From Escherichia coli (GTDB lineage Bacteria > Pseudomonadota > Gammaproteobacteria > Enterobacterales > Enterobacteriaceae), in the NCBI RefSeq assembly GCF_048403405.1, contig NZ_CP183129.1: a DNA stretch of 64,000 nt. The stretch is one strand, 5' to 3'. The notes beneath the pieces were generated by a model, which saw only the letters and a list, made by a program, of their open reading frames with translations, had not been told where the DNA came from and did no database searches. Both the position numbers and the translations under genes were made by a program. Below, one piece after another: positions 34,542-62,541 of this stretch; the first letter of the stretch is position 1, and each line of letters starts with the position of its first letter.

Positions 34542-36456
34542 TCACTCCTCCGGACAGCTTCGCTGCCAGTTCTTTAAGGGTTGGCCGGGTCGTCTCTTCT
34601 TCCCGGGATTTTGCCAGTACAGCCAGATCAAGCTGCCAGCGTTGCACGGACACACGTAATGCCGCGTAGGCATACACCAGGCAGTCCAGCGCTTCGTTAC
34701 GCCGCTTTTTGTTATCCCACAGCAGACGCATCTTTCCTTTTTCCCACTTCTCCACAAGCTCTTCCGCGACCAGTTGCTGCGCCTCTGTCTGCGAAAAAAT
34801 CTCCGGATCATCAGGAAAACGGATGGCATACGACGTGGCTTCATCCGCAGGCGTGGGCTCGGCTTTCATACGGGCATAGAGAATTTCTTTTGCGGTGTCC
34901 GTCCCCACTTCACACAGATAAACGCCCCGCTGATTGCGGGTTTTCGGCATGGTGATCACCGGCTTGCCATAGACAGACGCGCCTTTTACCGGCAGCACAC
35001 GGAAAACACCGTGTTTTTTTGACCTCTGGTAGACGATTTCACCATCGATCCCCCCGGTGTCCCAGCAGACACGGGAAATGGTCATTTCGGTGCCATCCGC
35101 ATGGCGGTATTTTTTGTTGATCGCCGCATCCACACGTAACAGCGTCTCTTCCTCATCAGGACGCCCCATAATGATGATTTTATCCACCAGAAAAGCTTCC
35201 TCTCCCGGTGCCCATCCCCAGACATACATCTCAAAACGGTTTCGCTGCGAGTCAATGCCCGCCGTCAGATAAACCACCCGGGCAGGCACCGCCGCCGTGT
35301 AACGCACAACCTTATCCATCAGCACCTGGTGATCGAGTTTTTCGCCCACGGCCTCTTCCCAGGTCTCGCCCAGCGTGGTGTTCACAAAGGTTTTCAGGCC
35401 GTTGGGATCTTTCAGTGCATCCAGCCAGTCATAGACTATCTGTACCCAGGTGGTGAACGGACTGTACGCTGTCCAGATATGGAACGTGATGGAGCGCGGC
35501 GGCGGAATTTCATTATCCGCGGCGCTGAAAAACGTCAGACCGTCACGGGTCCACATCCCCGTGTTTTCACAGATCCACCGCCCGTTGCTCTGGTCAAGCT
35601 CAGACTGATGGATCACGCAGCCATGATGTTCACAGAGGTAGAAAACGCTTTCGGGGCTGTCCTTCTCCCATTTAAGGCCAAAAGGCGTGGATTCATCGCC
35701 AAATTTCAGATACTGCTCCTCCCCACAGTGTGGGCAGGGCACATAAAAACGCATGAAATGCGCCGACTCGTTGGCCGCTTTTTCGATCTGGCAGGTGCCT
35801 TTGATTTTAGGCGTCGAGCCGCGAATGGATTTGGGCCATACAGAGCCCTCAATACGTTTATCCCCAAGCAGGGTTGGCGAACCCTCTTTTTCGACATCCG
35901 GTTCGAACGAGGAAAGTTCGTCATAGCAGACCACGTCCACGGATTTTTCACGGTAGTTTTTGGCGGCAGCGCCGCCCAGGCACCAGAAACCCACACCCGA
36001 TGAAAAGCGTTTCAGCGTGAGGGTATTGTCACGATGTTTACGCCCCAGCCATGGAAAAAGGTCTTTCAGACATGGCACATCCCGAATCGTCGCCTCCACG
36101 TGAGACTTCATAAAATCTTCAGCGGCAGAATCCGTGGGCTGAAAAAGCAGACTGTTTCGGGATTTATGCTCAATAAAATACCCGACCACCCCCAGCAACA
36201 TCTTTGTATAGCCAACACGGGCAGATTTAATCAGATTAACAGTCCGGATCTGATCATTCCCCATGCTGTTCATGATGGCGATCTGGAACGGCAGCGTTTT
36301 CCATTCTCCCTCACCATATGAAGATTCTTTAGGCAGATAATAATTTTGATCAGCCCATTCAACTGGCGTCACCGGCAATGCCCTTATCAGGGGCTGTAAT
36401 GCTGTTGTGACAGCACTCATCATATTATTCAGTTGTTGCTCTGATATATTCATCGA
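34525..36456 (-). CDS. A: terminase large subunit A
   Basis: Start set at MNISEQQLNN... ; collinear with lambda gpA (EWADxNYYLPKES, Walker-type ATPase, C-terminal nuclease). Confidence 0.95.
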   Translation of the reverse strand, partial: SMNISEQQLNNMMSAVTTALQPLIRALPVTPVEWADQNYYLPKESSYGEGEWKTLPFQIAIMNSMGNDQIRTVNLIKSARVGYTKMLLGVVGYFIEHKSRNSLLFQPTDSAAEDFMKSHVEATIRDVPCLKDLFPWLGRKHRDNTLTLKRFSSGVGFWCLGGAAAKNYREKSVDVVCYDELSSFEPDVEKEGSPTLLGDKRIEGSVWPKSIRGSTPKIKGTCQIEKAANESAHFMRFYVPCPHCGEEQYLKFGDESTPFGLKWEKDSPESVFYLCEHHGCVIHQSELDQSNGRWICENTGMWTRDGLTFFSAADNEIPPPRSITFHIWTAYSPFTTWVQIVYDWLDALKDPNGLKTFVNTTLGETWEEAVGEKLDHQVLMDKVVRYTAAVPARVVYLTAGIDSQRNRFEMYVWGWAPGEEAFLVDKIIIMGRPDEEETLLRVDAAINKKYRHADGTEMTISRVCWDTGGIDGEIVYQRSKKHGVFRVLPVKGASVYGKPVITMPKTRNQRGVYLCEVGTDTAKEILYARMKAEPTPADEATSYAIRFPDDPEIFSQTEAQQLVAEELVEKWEKGKMRLLWDNKKRRNEALDCLVYAYAALRVSVQRWQLDLAVLAKSREEETTRPTLKELAAKLSGGVNGYSR

Positions 36457-36934
36457 GTAAATCCGGTAATTTATCCCCCGCCCGCGCACACTGATTTGCC
36501 CCCTTCGCAATAAGGGTTTTCAGATGGTCAAGATGGCGCGGTGTTAAATCAGGAAACTGTCGCTGCATGGATAAAGGGATGGAATCAAGCGTACTGGATA
36601 ACGCCATTGCCAGCTTGCTGAGGGCAAAAATACAGAACCCGGTATCAATAAGTTTTCCTTTTGACACCTCATTTTTTAACTGCTGTGTAACAGCCTGTTC
36701 TGCTGTCAGTTCCCATCTGGCAATAAGCAATTTCTCCTCATAGTCGTCTTCGCTATCGCCATCAGGCACATCGTTTTTACTTCTTCTCAGATACGATATG
36801 TAAAAATCGCGCCAGGCATCCAGATCCAGTTGCCCTCGCTTATTCGATATCGGGGCACCCGGCAATTTCTGCAATCTGCGAAGCTGGCGATCGGTCAGAC
36901 TTAAATGCCTGGCAACTTCAGTCTGCGTAGCCAC
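36425..36934 (-). CDS. Nu1: terminase small subunit Nu1
   Basis: 169-aa ORF adjacent to cos; C-terminal half similar to lambda Nu1. Confidence 0.85.
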   Translation of the reverse strand: MATQTEVARHLSLTDRQLRRLQKLPGAPISNKRGQLDLDAWRDFYISYLRRSKNDVPDGDSEDDYEEKLLIARWELTAEQAVTQQLKNEVSKGKLIDTGFCIFALSKLAMALSSTLDSIPLSMQRQFPDLTPRHLDHLKTLIAKGANQCARAGDKLPDLLDEYIRATTE

Positions 36935-37117
36935 TCCTCACCTCGCAAAAACTCTCACTTCACAATCACAACAAAACCGGTCATGTCCGGCTTACATGTC
37001 TATTTTTTGTGCATGTCCGGTTCACAGAAGACCTCTTTTTTTATTTTTCATATAGTTAACTTGAAGAGAAACCGGACATGGTTCCCGGAAAATTTTCATA
37101 AATAGCGAAAACCCGCG

Positions 37118-37129
37118 AGGTCGCCGCCC
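37118..37129. other. cos site (cosN 12-nt cohesive end, GGGCGGCGACCT on minus strand)
   Basis: Minus strand of 37081-37160 reads ...CGGGTCCTTTCCG..GATCC.ACAGGTTACGGGGCGGCGACCTCGCGGGTTTTCGCTATTTATGAAAATTTTCCGG, matching the recalled lambda genome ends. Confidence 0.85.
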
Positions 37130-37277
37130 CGTAACCTGTTGGATCGACGGAAAGGACCCGAAAACGAGAATAATTATCACTTACAGCAAGAATCGAATCT
37201 GATCTATTATGGTGCTTGCTATTATGTGCCGGCACAAGTGCGTCGTTTACCGTCATTTCACACAGAGGCATCATCAA

Positions 37278-37529
37278 ATGAAAATCAGAAATATTCTCGC
37301 TATCTCCCTTGCAACATCATCCTTCAGTTGCCTGGCATTTAAATCCTCGCCCAATGTGCTACCAGGACCAACGAATCAACTAACTGCGGTAGAAAGTAAA
37401 ATTATCGGACATTTTTATGCCCCACACAGTGCATTACCCGGAACAACCATCACAGGGACATGTGACGCCTCCCCCGTCCCGGGATGCACCTGTCCGTTTT
37501 GTACTATGCTGCGTAGCCAAAACCGATAA
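37278..37529 (+). CDS. hypothetical secreted Cys-rich small protein (83 aa, signal peptide)
   Basis: N-terminal MKIRNILAISLATSSFSCLA; C-terminal CDASPVPGCTCPFC cluster; GAGG RBS; candidate promoter TTACAG-N18-TATTAT upstream. Confidence 0.35.
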   Translation: MKIRNILAISLATSSFSCLAFKSSPNVLPGPTNQLTAVESKIIGHFYAPHSALPGTTITGTCDASPVPGCTCPFCTMLRSQNR

Positions 37530-37590
37530 CATCCGCATTTACCTGGTATTACATGATGAGTTCACGCAGCGACTGATAGAGGAAGGAAAG

Positions 37591-37770
37591 ATGGTTAGTA
37601 AAAGCAAGGCGCATTGCCGCCGCATGCTGCAGGCATTGCAACAGACGAGAGCAGGTATTTTTGACCAGTTGGAAAACTGCCAGCATACTTTGCCCGAGTA
37701 TATCGCCATCTCATCGGAAACCAGTGCAACTCTTATTCATCGGGTTCCACCAGAGAAAAAGAAGAAATGA
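37591..37770 (+). CDS. hypothetical 59-aa protein
   Basis: ORF with strong RBS (AGAGGAAGGAAAG) following the secreted peptide gene; hairpin immediately downstream. Confidence 0.3.
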   Translation: MVSKSKAHCRRMLQALQQTRAGIFDQLENCQHTLPEYIAISSETSATLIHRVPPEKKKK

Positions 37771-37892
37771 ACAGTGAGGCGTTGTGTGGCATACAACGCC
37801 TTCTTCCATCATTCCTCGTCAGCCATGACAAAAATATAACCGCTGGCTCTTTCATTTTTCTCCTGCGTCCAGCCCCTCTCTACCTGGAAGCA

Positions 37893-38219
37893 TCAAGGAC
37901 GTGACGGCGTAAAGATAAATTGTCTCTTCACTCCCTGACAGGGGCGATTCTTTTCAAATCGCCATTTCGCCATGGCCTTCACCACTTCATCACGAAACAA
38001 ATTATGAGGCTCTGAGCGGAGAAAAACGATCCGTGTCACAGTCCCATCAGCACCAATATCGAACTTAACCTCAACCAGCCCCTTGATATAATTTGCTGCA
38101 GCATATTCCGGATATCGTGGATACACCGTCACTAATTGCCGGGGCTCATCAGCTTTTTGCTGCGAGCATCCCACTGCCAGGACAGATAACAGAAAAAGTA
38201 GTAAAAGGCGTCTTTTCAT
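37893..38219 (-). CDS. lipoprotein with TonB C-terminal-like domain (108 aa)
   Basis: Signal peptide + lipobox (LLLLFLLSVLAVGC, Ser at +2); body aligns to TonB C-terminal domain (YPxxA...G.V.VKFDxxxDGxV...P...F..EV..AM..WRxE). Confidence 0.6.
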   Translation of the reverse strand: MKRRLLLLFLLSVLAVGCSQQKADEPRQLVTVYPRYPEYAAANYIKGLVEVKFDIGADGTVTRIVFLRSEPHNLFRDEVVKAMAKWRFEKNRPCQGVKRQFIFTPSRP

Positions 38220-38529
38220 TTTTATTCCTACGGGTCTTATTCTGACAATATATCCTGTGTTCCAGACTGCCACATCACCACATCCTGTGCCATTATCTGA
38301 CTCACATTACATACATCGCATCGGGATACAGTAGTAGCACTTTCTGTAATACAGCTTCCTGTTTCTTCCACCATCGCACCGGGATAAACCCGCGAATCAT
38401 TAACGCGGTAAAAACCCGGTGTGCATCGTTTTTAATTATCCCCGCACACTCGCGCAGAGGAGTCTCCCTGTCGGGCTGCGGTCTCTGTTAATGAGGGAAT
38501 ATAGCGACGATACGGCGCATCAACAAAAC

Positions 38530-39003
38530 TTATTTCAGGCACTGAGTGCGGATATAGTCCTGTGCCCCTTCCAGTTGCTTGTGCATCGTCATCAGCCGCT
38601 CTCTGAGGGTGAAATAATCCCGTGTAACGGTGTCTGCCAGTTGGGGGCCGGTTGCATTATCCACGCCGGAGGTGGTGGGGGCTTCACGCACGGAGCCTGG
38701 ACAGGTGGCGTTGATCCGCAGGCGCTTACGACCAGCGGCAACGTCAGCGCGAAGAGTTTCATTTTCAGCTCTCGCATCGGCTAATTCCCTCGAGTATTTT
38801 GCATCGAGCGCAGCAACATCGCGCTGGCGCACCTGCATATCAGTAATGGTTGCGTTCGCCAGCTTCAGTTCACTGGCTTTGTTATCGCGCTGCGCTTTGT
38901 AGGTAATCGCGTTATCACGGTAATGGTCTGTTGCCATCCACAGCGCACCACAGGCCACCAGCAGAATAACGATAAACGCGGAAAGCATTCGGTTTATGTT
39001 CAC
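38530..39003 (-). CDS. Rz: i-spanin Rz
   Basis: 157-aa ORF similar to lambda Rz ([15 protein letters not shown] ... [10 protein letters not shown] ... [17 protein letters not shown]). Confidence 0.9.
38592..38777 (-). CDS. Rz1: o-spanin Rz1 (embedded in +1 frame of Rz)
   Basis: 61-aa ORF with lipobox and proline-rich core [14 protein letters not shown], as in lambda Rz1. Confidence 0.8.
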
Positions 39004-39484: not shown

Positions 39485-40018
39485 TTATCTGTCGATACCC
39501 CAGCACGCCAGCGCGCTCTCCTGGTCACGACGGGATACCTGACCGTAACAGTTGTTTGAACGAATACGGCAGTCTCTGCCACCGTCCTTAATCCACCAGC
39601 GAATCGCTTCGCAGGCACCTTTTCGATCACCAGCATTAATTCGTCTGTAAAACGTCGACGGGAAACACTTACCGGGATCAATGTTGTACGGACAGAATGA
39701 CGCGATCCCCGCTTTCTGGGGTTCGGTCAGCGGCACTCTGATGTTTTTCTCCACCCACGCCAGCGCTTTATCACGCTCAATGGCGTTAACCTGGTCGCAT
39801 TTTTCCTTCGACAACTTCATGCCCGGAACGACAGGTTTGCCATCCACCATGATGGCACCACGGCAGATGGTCCAGATACCTGCACCATCACGGTATGCCG
39901 TGGTGTGGTTGCCTTCCTTTTCATCCAGAAACTGGTCGAGAATGTCAGGCGCAGGCGCACCAGCGGCAATCAGCGCCAGAACGGCAGCCGACAGGCCGTA
40001 TTTGATTTTGGTGTTCAT
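39485..40018 (-). CDS. R: SAR-endolysin (GH24 lysozyme R)
   Basis: 177-aa ORF; N-terminal Gly/Ala-rich weakly hydrophobic SAR segment then T4-lysozyme-like E...D...T catalytic pattern (EKEGNHTTAYRDGAGIWTICRG). Confidence 0.85.
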   Translation of the reverse strand: MNTKIKYGLSAAVLALIAAGAPAPDILDQFLDEKEGNHTTAYRDGAGIWTICRGAIMVDGKPVVPGMKLSKEKCDQVNAIERDKALAWVEKNIRVPLTEPQKAGIASFCPYNIDPGKCFPSTFYRRINAGDRKGACEAIRWWIKDGGRDCRIRSNNCYGQVSRRDQESALACWGIDR

Positions 40019-62079: not shown

Positions 62080-62541
62080 ATGAGTCAGGACAGTAGAGTT
62101 TTCTTTCGTATATTCCTCGGTATCGGTCTGGTACTGATCCTCATTTCTGTTGTTGTCTTTTATAACCAGTTCACCTATAGCAAAGACGCGATTCATACTG
62201 AAGGCGTCATTGTTGATACCGTCTGGCACTCCAGTCATTCTCATCGCACGGGTAAAAATGGTTCGTGGTATCCCGTCGTTGCCTTTCGTCCAACGCCAGA
62301 TTACACGCTAATTTTCAATTCGAGTATTGGCAGCGATTTTTATGAAGACAGCGAAGGCGATAAAGTTAATGTTTATTATTCTCCAGGACATCCTGAAAAG
62401 GCTGAGATAAATAACCCGTGGGTTAATTTTTTTAAATGGGGATTTATCGGCATTATGGGCGTTATTTTTATCTCCGTCGGTTTATTAATCAGTATGCCCT
62501 ACTCTAAAAAGACACGCAGGAAACGGAAGTCCCGCCCATGA
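62080..62541 (+). CDS. ymfA: inner membrane protein YmfA (DUF3592-like)
   Basis: Start at internal ATG (MSQDSRV) gives 153 aa; two TM segments flanking a beta-rich domain. Confidence 0.75.

Follow-up and report, generated by a model that had tools for sequence, protein, structure and literature searches.

We describe here ORF83, an open reading frame (ORF) of 83 codons located next to the cos site of a prophage in Escherichia coli. The DNA analysed is a stretch of 64,000 nucleotides from contig NZ_CP183129.1 (assembly GCF_048403405.1), which we call the window, and positions are counted from its first letter. The segment in question is a cos-proximal antisense cargo slot of a phage-21-type lambdoid prophage and holds one real gene, ORF83. 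Judging from sequence comparison, this gene is very probably of the expressed type and encodes an exported four-cysteine protein that the prophage bears as cargo. Because relatives of ORF83 have zinc genes as neighbours and Zur boxes upstream, we also hold with good confidence that the family is tied to the Zur (zinc-starvation) response. The elements of the gene are as follows.

37278-37529, + strand: ORF83, 83 codons; start codon ATG at 37278 and ribosome-binding site (RBS) AGAGG at 37264-37268.
37278-37337, + strand: signal peptide M1-A20, with a predicted signal peptidase I cut at CLA/FK (the slash marks the cut).
37461-37502, + strand: cysteine cluster C62-x7-C70-x-C72-x2-C75 (CDASPVPGCTCPFC).

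An earlier note, made from the sequence alone, had described an 83-aa ORF with a signal-peptide-like N-terminus and the C-terminal cysteine cluster CDASPVPGCTCPFC, and this description agrees with what is found at 37278-37529 on the + strand. A search of 5.8 billion protein clusters returned homologues of 82-84 aa with 55-72% identity from E. coli, Salmonella (subspecies salamae, arizonae, diarizonae and indica), Klebsiella and Citrobacter, and a scan of species-representative genomes, which returned 3 loci, added a homologue from Buttiauxella. With a profile search of 1.84 billion representatives, the family grew to 30 representatives and now includes members from Enterobacter, Serratia and Pantoea; family lengths are 79-86 aa, and all of the wider-family members are named 'hypothetical protein'. 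Between ORF83 and its homologues, the proportion of non-synonymous sites that differ (pN) is 0.16-0.3 and that of synonymous sites (pS) is 0.65-0.9, the latter being saturated, and the ratio of non-synonymous to synonymous substitution rates (dN/dS) is 0.10-0.17 where calculable. None of the 43 phage-type copies contains a frameshift or a stop. Because the diverged homologues keep their length, and because synonymous sites are saturated while pN stays at 0.16-0.3, the comparison identifies ORF83 as a genuine gene of an uncharacterised Enterobacterales family. Searches with ORF83 against Pfam-A (with two alignments), NCBIfam, PHROGs, PADLOC and the PDB sequence profiles gave no match. In two E. 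coli variants of ORF83 (P0003 and P0006), the middle of the gene is read in the +1 frame and returns to the original frame before PGCTCPFC; this excursion could reflect paired compensating indels or assembly errors.

The predicted signal peptide has an n-region with K2 and R4, hydrophobic residues 6-17 and the cleavage site C18-L19-A20/F21. In an alignment of 35 family sequences, the invariant columns are A20, F21, C62, C70, C72 and C75, and at least 90% conservation is seen at Y47, G60, P66, G69, L78 and R79. Distant members show classic AXA sites (ALA/FQ, AMA/FQ and AWA/FQ). Because AXA sites followed by F are textbook ones in these distant members and Cys18 is not conserved, the product is probably exported and cleaved by signal peptidase I, and it is not a lipoprotein. 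A lipoprotein reading of ORF83 (SSFSC) was considered and dropped: SFSC is a non-canonical lipobox, and Cys18 gives way to alanine or another residue in distant members. Two of the profile search matches (P0045 and P0047) carry the motif P-[IL]-P-G-C-N-C-P-x-C-T-x-L-R in 4-5 tandem copies, much like the C-terminus of ORF83; they are long, asparagine-rich, low-complexity proteins of unknown origin, and the repeat motif lies outside any Pfam domain.

Most of the genomic contexts of the family were obtained by exact-protein look-ups. In Klebsiella pneumoniae, the core-genome copy is convergent with aztD-aztC-aztB-aztA, in which the first two genes match the NCBIfam models AztD (459 bits, cut-off 400) and AztC (381 bits, cut-off 350) and are followed by genes for an ABC-3 permease and an ATPase. 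This operon is preceded by ALAD- and amidohydrolase-family genes, and paralogues of these two families are typical members of Zur regulons (PMC2770081). The Pantoea copy lies between dksA2-folE2-hexapeptide-thrS paralogues on one side and a cobW gene, a Fur-family regulator gene and a cysS paralogue on the other, an arrangement that is the classic Zur-regulated zinc-sparing island of Haas et al. (PMC2770081). A Klebsiella plasmid copy adjoins a ZigA-like cobW gene and a Fur-family gene, and the Enterobacter copy is located 61 nt 3' of the gene for a P1B heavy-metal ATPase with a CPC motif. The Citrobacter copy abuts a fecI-fecR-TonB-dependent receptor operon, and the Serratia copy is divergent from an ABC importer with a family-5 substrate-binding protein. 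The Salmonella copies are followed by a bor homologue and an omptin gene, and also lie near genes for a SPATE autotransporter and a NEL effector.

Zur boxes were scored on a 16-position core against the gamma-proteobacterial consensus GAAATGTTATANTATAACATTTC, as confirmed in PMC2706843, in the 150 nt upstream of the start codon. The K. pneumoniae relative of ORF83 has a core of 15/16 (ATGTTATTTTATAACAT at -108), and the relatives from Buttiauxella, Serratia and Citrobacter have cores of 14/16, 13/16 and 12/16, respectively. Of the 13 contexts, 4 score at least 12/16, a level that 0.85% of 1171 background windows taken from those loci reach (binomial p ~4e-6). Positive controls appear as expected, both upstream of the azt genes and within the Pantoea island, and on this scale footprinted Zur sites of Yersinia pestis (PMC2706843) reach 13-15/16 when counted by hand. 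A near-perfect Zur palindrome of 14/16, TTGTTATAGTATAACAA, is found in Salmonella (L007, 4453-4469; L013, 3461-3477), 35-50 nt ahead of a gene with a PPC domain; that gene encodes an exported protein of 133 aa and lies directly 5' of the ORF83 homologue. This layout suggests that the PPC-domain gene and the ORF83 homologue form a two-gene unit under putative Zur control. L007 also has a Fur-like palindrome, AAATGATAAAAATTATCATT (~5335-5360), in the promoter region of the bor homologue that follows the ORF83 relative.

The window holds a lambdoid prophage of the phage-21 type, and its features around ORF83 are listed below.

34525-36510, - strand: terminase large subunit.
36425-36934, - strand: Nu1.
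37118-37129: cosN cohesive-end sequence AGGTCGCCGCCC, read from the sequence; it is the reverse complement of lambda GGGCGGCGACCT.
37153-37159: cosQ, AGGACCC; the position is carried over from the phage 21 annotation.
37893-38219, - strand: TonB C-terminal-domain lipoprotein gene.
38530-39003, - strand: Rz/Rz1 spanins.
39485-40018, - strand: lysozyme gene.

Position 37130 of the window corresponds to the right end of the phage 21 genome, and lambda has the same cosQ heptamer at an equal distance from its genome end. ORF83 and a second ORF of 59 codons downstream of it, ORF59, lie just right of cosN and cosQ and are antisense to the late operon, whose genes (Nu1 and terminase, Rz, lysozyme and TonB-like) occupy the - strand; the placement next to cos and opposite the late operon that the earlier note had given is correct. 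Positions 37100-37900 share 99.5% identity with the phage 21 right end (OL657228) and 100% identity with many E. coli chromosomes, including that of ATCC 25922. At a coverage of at least 80%, 1222 of the 5426 complete E. coli genomes carry the segment, as do 7 phage records. The cos flank is common to 44 phage records, and the ORF83 segment occurs in 7 of these 44, that is, its presence is patchy. The slot contains a DUF3950 gene in lambda and in the K-12 prophage Qin, together with ydfO in the latter, and another E. coli lambdoid prophage (L034) has there an ORF83 homologue, a 44-aa lipoprotein-like ORF and a DUF3950 gene. The 44-aa ORF (L034 5345-5479, MKYFALISALLLSAC...), situated between the other two, counts as one more small envelope gene carried as cargo.

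On the other side of the slot, the TonB-like gene at 37893-38219 is the last late-strand gene before cos. It encodes a lipoprotein of 108 aa with the lipobox AVGC, nearly all of which is a TonB C-terminal domain (47 bits against TIGR01352, cut-off 27). The PHROGs label for its family, 'Rz-like spanin', is probably a misnomer. Such a domain, placed in the periplasm, could disturb TonB-dependent uptake or phage entry.

Besides the two ORFs, the slot and its edges contain the following elements, to which the Fur boxes at the cos flanks of other prophages are added.

37160-37184, directly after cosQ: Fur-box-like element GAAAACGAGAATAATTATCACTTAC, with a 7-1-7 core CGAGAATAATTATCA at 37165-37179.
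37181-37225, + strand: candidate promoter region, with TTACAG at 37181-37186, a spacer of 18 nt (N18) and TATTAT at 37205-37210; alternative extended -10 TGCTATTAT at 37217-37225.
37591-37770, + strand: ORF59, 59 codons, with a strong RBS AGGAAGGA at 37580-37587; its coding status is unproven.
37776-37802: hairpin with a 12-bp stem and a 3-nt loop, where the + strand unit and the TonB-like gene converge.
Lambda (L032), ~2149-2167: cos-flank Fur box.
K-12 Qin (L033), 2093-2113: cos-flank Fur box.
L034, ~4880-4900: cos-flank Fur box.

The Fur-box-like element matches the Fur 19-mer GATAATGATAATCATTATC at 15/19 and 14/19 positions in two overlapping registers, and the 7-1-7 motif TGATAATnATTATCA at 12/14, the latter being the sole such match in the window. 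Lambda and Qin hold GTGATAATGATTATCATC at the corresponding position, the Qin copy being the site at nohA -233, and L034 has a perfect TGATAATAATTATCA at the same cos-flank position. Chen et al. confirmed the Qin nohA Fur site (22.3 bits) by gel shift, after a hit by Fur titration in vivo, and listed the nohB site of DLP12 at 25.3 bits (PMC2189734). On this comparison, the predicted Fur box is a conserved feature of the cos flank in lambdoid phages, and it faces a slot of variable + strand content. Searches of the literature on iron regulation of ynfO, ydfO and ylcI, and on the phage 21 TonB-like gene, gave nothing usable. A second Fur-like match in the window (62359-62383; 15/19 and 14/19, overlapping), probably due to chance, falls within an ORF of 167 codons that follows a potD-like gene.

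A sigma70 promoter of the form TTACAG-N18-TATTAT had been proposed for this unit. The sequence exists, but TTACAG matches TTGACA at only 2/6 positions and a consensus scan was silent. The first -10 candidate, TATTAT at 37205-37210, is TATTCT in a natural allele (L022); the second, at 37217-37225, is constant in the compared alleles except L051 (T37220A). Neither of the two is conserved in the 72%-identity allele of L034. The unit looks moron-like: it is antisense cargo, patchily present in a variable slot and with a hairpin; the candidate for a promoter of its own is a weak match to the consensus.

The hairpin at 37776-37802 has a folding energy of -23.3 kcal/mol (z = -2.9), and 2 of 200 shuffled sequences fold equally well. 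Its stem varies in 1 of 11 alleles (C37780T in L073). A terminator-like hairpin had been noted at about 37775-37805; the stem-loop is there, but on the + strand the U-tract is poor (CUUCCAUCAUUCC). On the - strand, the extended stem is followed by UUUUUCUCU and looks more like an intrinsic terminator. The element is possibly a bidirectional terminator, and it may end the convergent TonB-like gene at least as well. An Rfam search over 36800-38400 found nothing save a chance match to a microRNA (E = 0.88).

Public annotations of this DNA contradict each other. In the phage 21 record, two - strand ORFs are called here, and in another phage record + strand ORFs. The PGAP/RefSeq record that was inspected (ATCC 25922) misses ORF83 and contains only a 45-aa ORF on the - strand at 37549-37686. 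PHROGs holds families for ORFs of both strands on the same DNA (phrog_4843 and phrog_3744). Gene calls therefore carry no weight here and comparative evidence is needed; the annotated antisense ORFs, namely the 45-aa ORF of PGAP and the two - strand ORFs of phage 21, are likely annotation artefacts.

The earlier note had taken ORF59, with its strong RBS, as the second member of a two-gene unit. The ORF and the RBS are there, but the comparison supports a gene for ORF83 only. ORF59 has no relatives below ~90% identity among the 5.8 billion protein clusters and 50,697 phage records, and it is absent from all of the at least 12 contexts of ORF83 relatives outside phage 21, in which no other constant neighbour is found either. 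In the natural L022-type allele, a +1 insertion of A at ~37605, after codon 6, shifts the frame of ORF59 and leaves ORF83 intact; the same insertion also breaks the antisense ORF annotated by PGAP. Among 11 alleles in 43 copies, the differences within ORF59 comprise 1 synonymous and 4 non-synonymous changes as well as 1 frameshift. A possible ORF59 homologue 3' of the Klebsiella plasmid copy, with the same RBS, an ATGGT start and 'RML' at codons 11-13, was discarded, since the DNA alignment is poor and BLASTP gave no hit.

The favoured explanation of ORF83 is as follows. The 83-aa precursor would be exported by the Sec pathway and cut by signal peptidase I between A20 and F21, leaving a mature protein of ~63 aa in the periplasm. 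Its core would consist of a short helix (E39...F46-Y47) followed by the invariant C-x7-C-x-C-x2-C cluster. The four cysteines could bind a metal ion directly, in the capture or hand-over of zinc, or alternatively could form two disulfides that stabilise a small partner-binding fold. A role in coping with periplasmic metal limitation is proposed as the most likely one because the chromosomal relatives are part of the zinc-starvation response. The phage copy is without the ancestral Zur box; it is placed ~100 nt downstream of the Fur box flanking cosQ, and its expression in the lysogen would be derepressed by iron limitation. Taken as a whole, our best reading is that ORF83 is lysogenic-conversion cargo encoding a four-cysteine protein of the periplasm with a role in metal starvation, and we consider the case for it evenly poised. 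That the product itself handles metal is a tentative proposal from its cysteines and its relatives, which we rate somewhat below this. We are more doubtful that the phage ORF83 is iron-regulated via the predicted cos-flank Fur box. The most specific form of the explanation, a new family for periplasmic capture or hand-over of zinc or another thiophilic metal by four cysteines, with the chromosomal copies under Zur and the phage copy rewired to the Fur box, appears unlikely.

Several points weigh against this explanation. A Zur box was sought upstream of ORF83 in the window and none was found, the best core match being 8-9/16, and about half of the family contexts are without Zur box and zinc genes alike (L021 and L028). 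No histidine is invariant among the 35 family sequences. The periplasm is oxidising, and cysteines there are usually bonded in disulfides and seldom serve as metal ligands. AlphaFold2 predictions with 19 and 35 sequences reached mean pLDDT values of 49 and 57 and gave no structural support. Within E. coli, polymorphism of ORF83 amounts to 1 synonymous and 4 non-synonymous codon changes, which is too sparse to show constraint. A search of the literature for a transcript, a protein or a phenotype of ORF83, including zinc proteomics of K. pneumoniae, found none. As for iron, we can only infer control of ORF83 by Fur, because the left half of the box in the window is degenerate (CGAGAAT against TGATAAT), the promoter is a candidate only and the box is present in the cos flank even where ORF83 is absent (lambda and Qin); the box may have nothing to do with ORF83.

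In a different proposal, ORF83 is a two-disulfide periplasmic protein that binds another protein, such as a host antimicrobial enzyme, a transporter or a substrate-binding protein, and is co-regulated with zinc starvation only since low zinc signals the host environment. PliG of E. coli, a lysozyme inhibitor regulated by Zur, provides a precedent. Disulfides are the usual state of four invariant cysteines in an exported protein, a conserved histidine is absent, virulence-type genes (bor, omptin, SPATE autotransporter and NEL effector) surround the Salmonella copies, and the association with Zur boxes fits this proposal equally well. However, the neighbours are specifically genes of zinc uptake or sparing (aztABCD, ZigA-like cobW, dksA2, folE2 and the P1B ATPase), no target can be named and no similarity to known inhibitor families is seen, and we regard the proposal as unlikely. 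A further proposal is that ORF83, perhaps with the TonB-like lipoprotein, alters envelope receptors or TonB-dependent uptake and thereby excludes superinfecting phages or colicins. It draws on the position of ORF83 as prophage cargo beside the gene for that lipoprotein and on the Citrobacter relative adjoining the fecI-fecR-TonB-dependent receptor operon; however, most relatives are chromosomal, far from prophages and under Zur boxes, the TonB-like gene is on the opposite strand and does not accompany ORF83 elsewhere, and PADLOC gave no match. We consider exclusion very unlikely.

The remaining proposals concern ORF59. It might be a real gene for a small cytoplasmic protein of 59 aa, or of 48 aa from an internal ATG, a recent orphan co-transcribed with ORF83: the RBS is strong, the C-terminal part of 48 codons is open in both alleles, the ORF ends 6 nt before the hairpin, and some annotators call it, with a PHROG of its own (phrog_4843). 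Set against this are the want of any diverged homologue, the frameshift allele and the excess of non-synonymous substitutions (4 against 1 synonymous); moreover, the antisense ORF has equally good PHROG and PGAP calls, so that such calls are mechanical. That ORF59 is such a gene, or is translated at all, is rather unlikely, and the ORF is probably an orphan or at most a dispensable add-on with no dedicated role as a partner. The earlier note had suggested that ORF83 could be a secreted toxin or bacteriocin-like peptide and ORF59 its immunity or accessory protein, the two forming an autonomous moron. The small size, export and cysteine richness of the product would suit a toxin, and ORF59 follows at 61 nt with its RBS and with the hairpin behind it. 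The suggestion nevertheless fails because ORF59 is not co-inherited with ORF83: in all other contexts the relatives of ORF83 are without ORF59 or any constant neighbour, and ORF59 is frameshifted where ORF83 is intact. In addition, ORF59 has no signal peptide and no hydrophobic or membrane segment, as would normally be needed against a periplasmic toxin. Genes for export or processing are not seen nearby (the neighbours are terminase, the TonB-like gene and the spanins), PADLOC, Pfam and NCBIfam gave no matches, and the neighbours of the relatives are genes of zinc homeostasis rather than of export or immunity. A toxin-immunity pair is therefore highly improbable, and a cargo gene for an exported protein linked to metal starvation is the reading that we retain.

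Of the complete E. coli genomes, more than one in five carry the ORF83 gene, yet no family database holds it. The link to Zur boxes and zinc importers provides the first testable functional hypothesis for the family and lengthens the short list of periplasmic zinc-starvation proteins by one candidate. The Fur site by cosQ faces a slot of variable cargo, a position that suggests possible control of cargo gene expression by iron limitation. If the most specific form of the explanation were true, prophages of the phage-21 type, found in ~22% of complete E. coli genomes, would equip their lysogens against the nutritional immunity of the host, and a new class of periplasmic zinc-starvation protein would be spread by a very common prophage.

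In comparison with known systems, cargo genes of prophages and exported proteins with a link to zinc starvation are both known kinds, and the ORF83 family itself is undescribed in the libraries and literature searched. The heat-stable enterotoxin STa of E. coli and the class II microcins are likewise small, with an N-terminal export signal and a C-terminal cysteine cluster. They differ from ORF83 in cysteine spacing; ORF83 has no pro-peptide, double-glycine leader, dedicated exporter or immunity gene, and the neighbourhoods of its family point to zinc homeostasis, not to toxin loci. Like the lambda morons bor and lom, ORF83 is a cargo gene for a small envelope protein that is exported; it lies antisense within the late region of a lambdoid prophage, and only some related phages have it. 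However, ORF83 shares no sequence with Bor or Lom, its product is neither a lipoprotein nor an outer-membrane beta-barrel, and it has only a candidate for a promoter of its own.

The position and orientation of ORF83, after cosQ and the Fur box and reading away from cos, are shared with ynfO-ydfO of Qin, the ylcI-type gene of DLP12 and an unannotated 64-aa ORF at the right end of lambda. The proteins are unrelated, in that those with DUF3950 or DUF1398 have no recognisable signal peptide, whereas that of ORF83 is predicted to be exported and is cysteine-rich. The Fur box in the window resembles the nohA and nohB sites (PMC2189734) in its distances from Nu1/nohA (~-233) and from cosQ, which are the same, and in 12/15 core positions of the Qin site. 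Its left half is CGAGAAT, however, and binding to it is predicted only; moreover, PMC2189734 assigned the site to nohA, not to the opposite gene. A further parallel is with zinc-handling proteins of the periplasm that Zur regulates, namely ZinT/YodA, AztD and Zcp/DUF4198 (Zcp: PMC12663993). ORF83 has no sequence or fold relation to these proteins, is much smaller (~63 aa when mature), offers four cysteines as candidate ligands where they have histidine-rich sites, and in the phage copy is without a Zur box. What its family has in common with them is predicted export, members located behind Zur boxes, and a place beside zinc importers.

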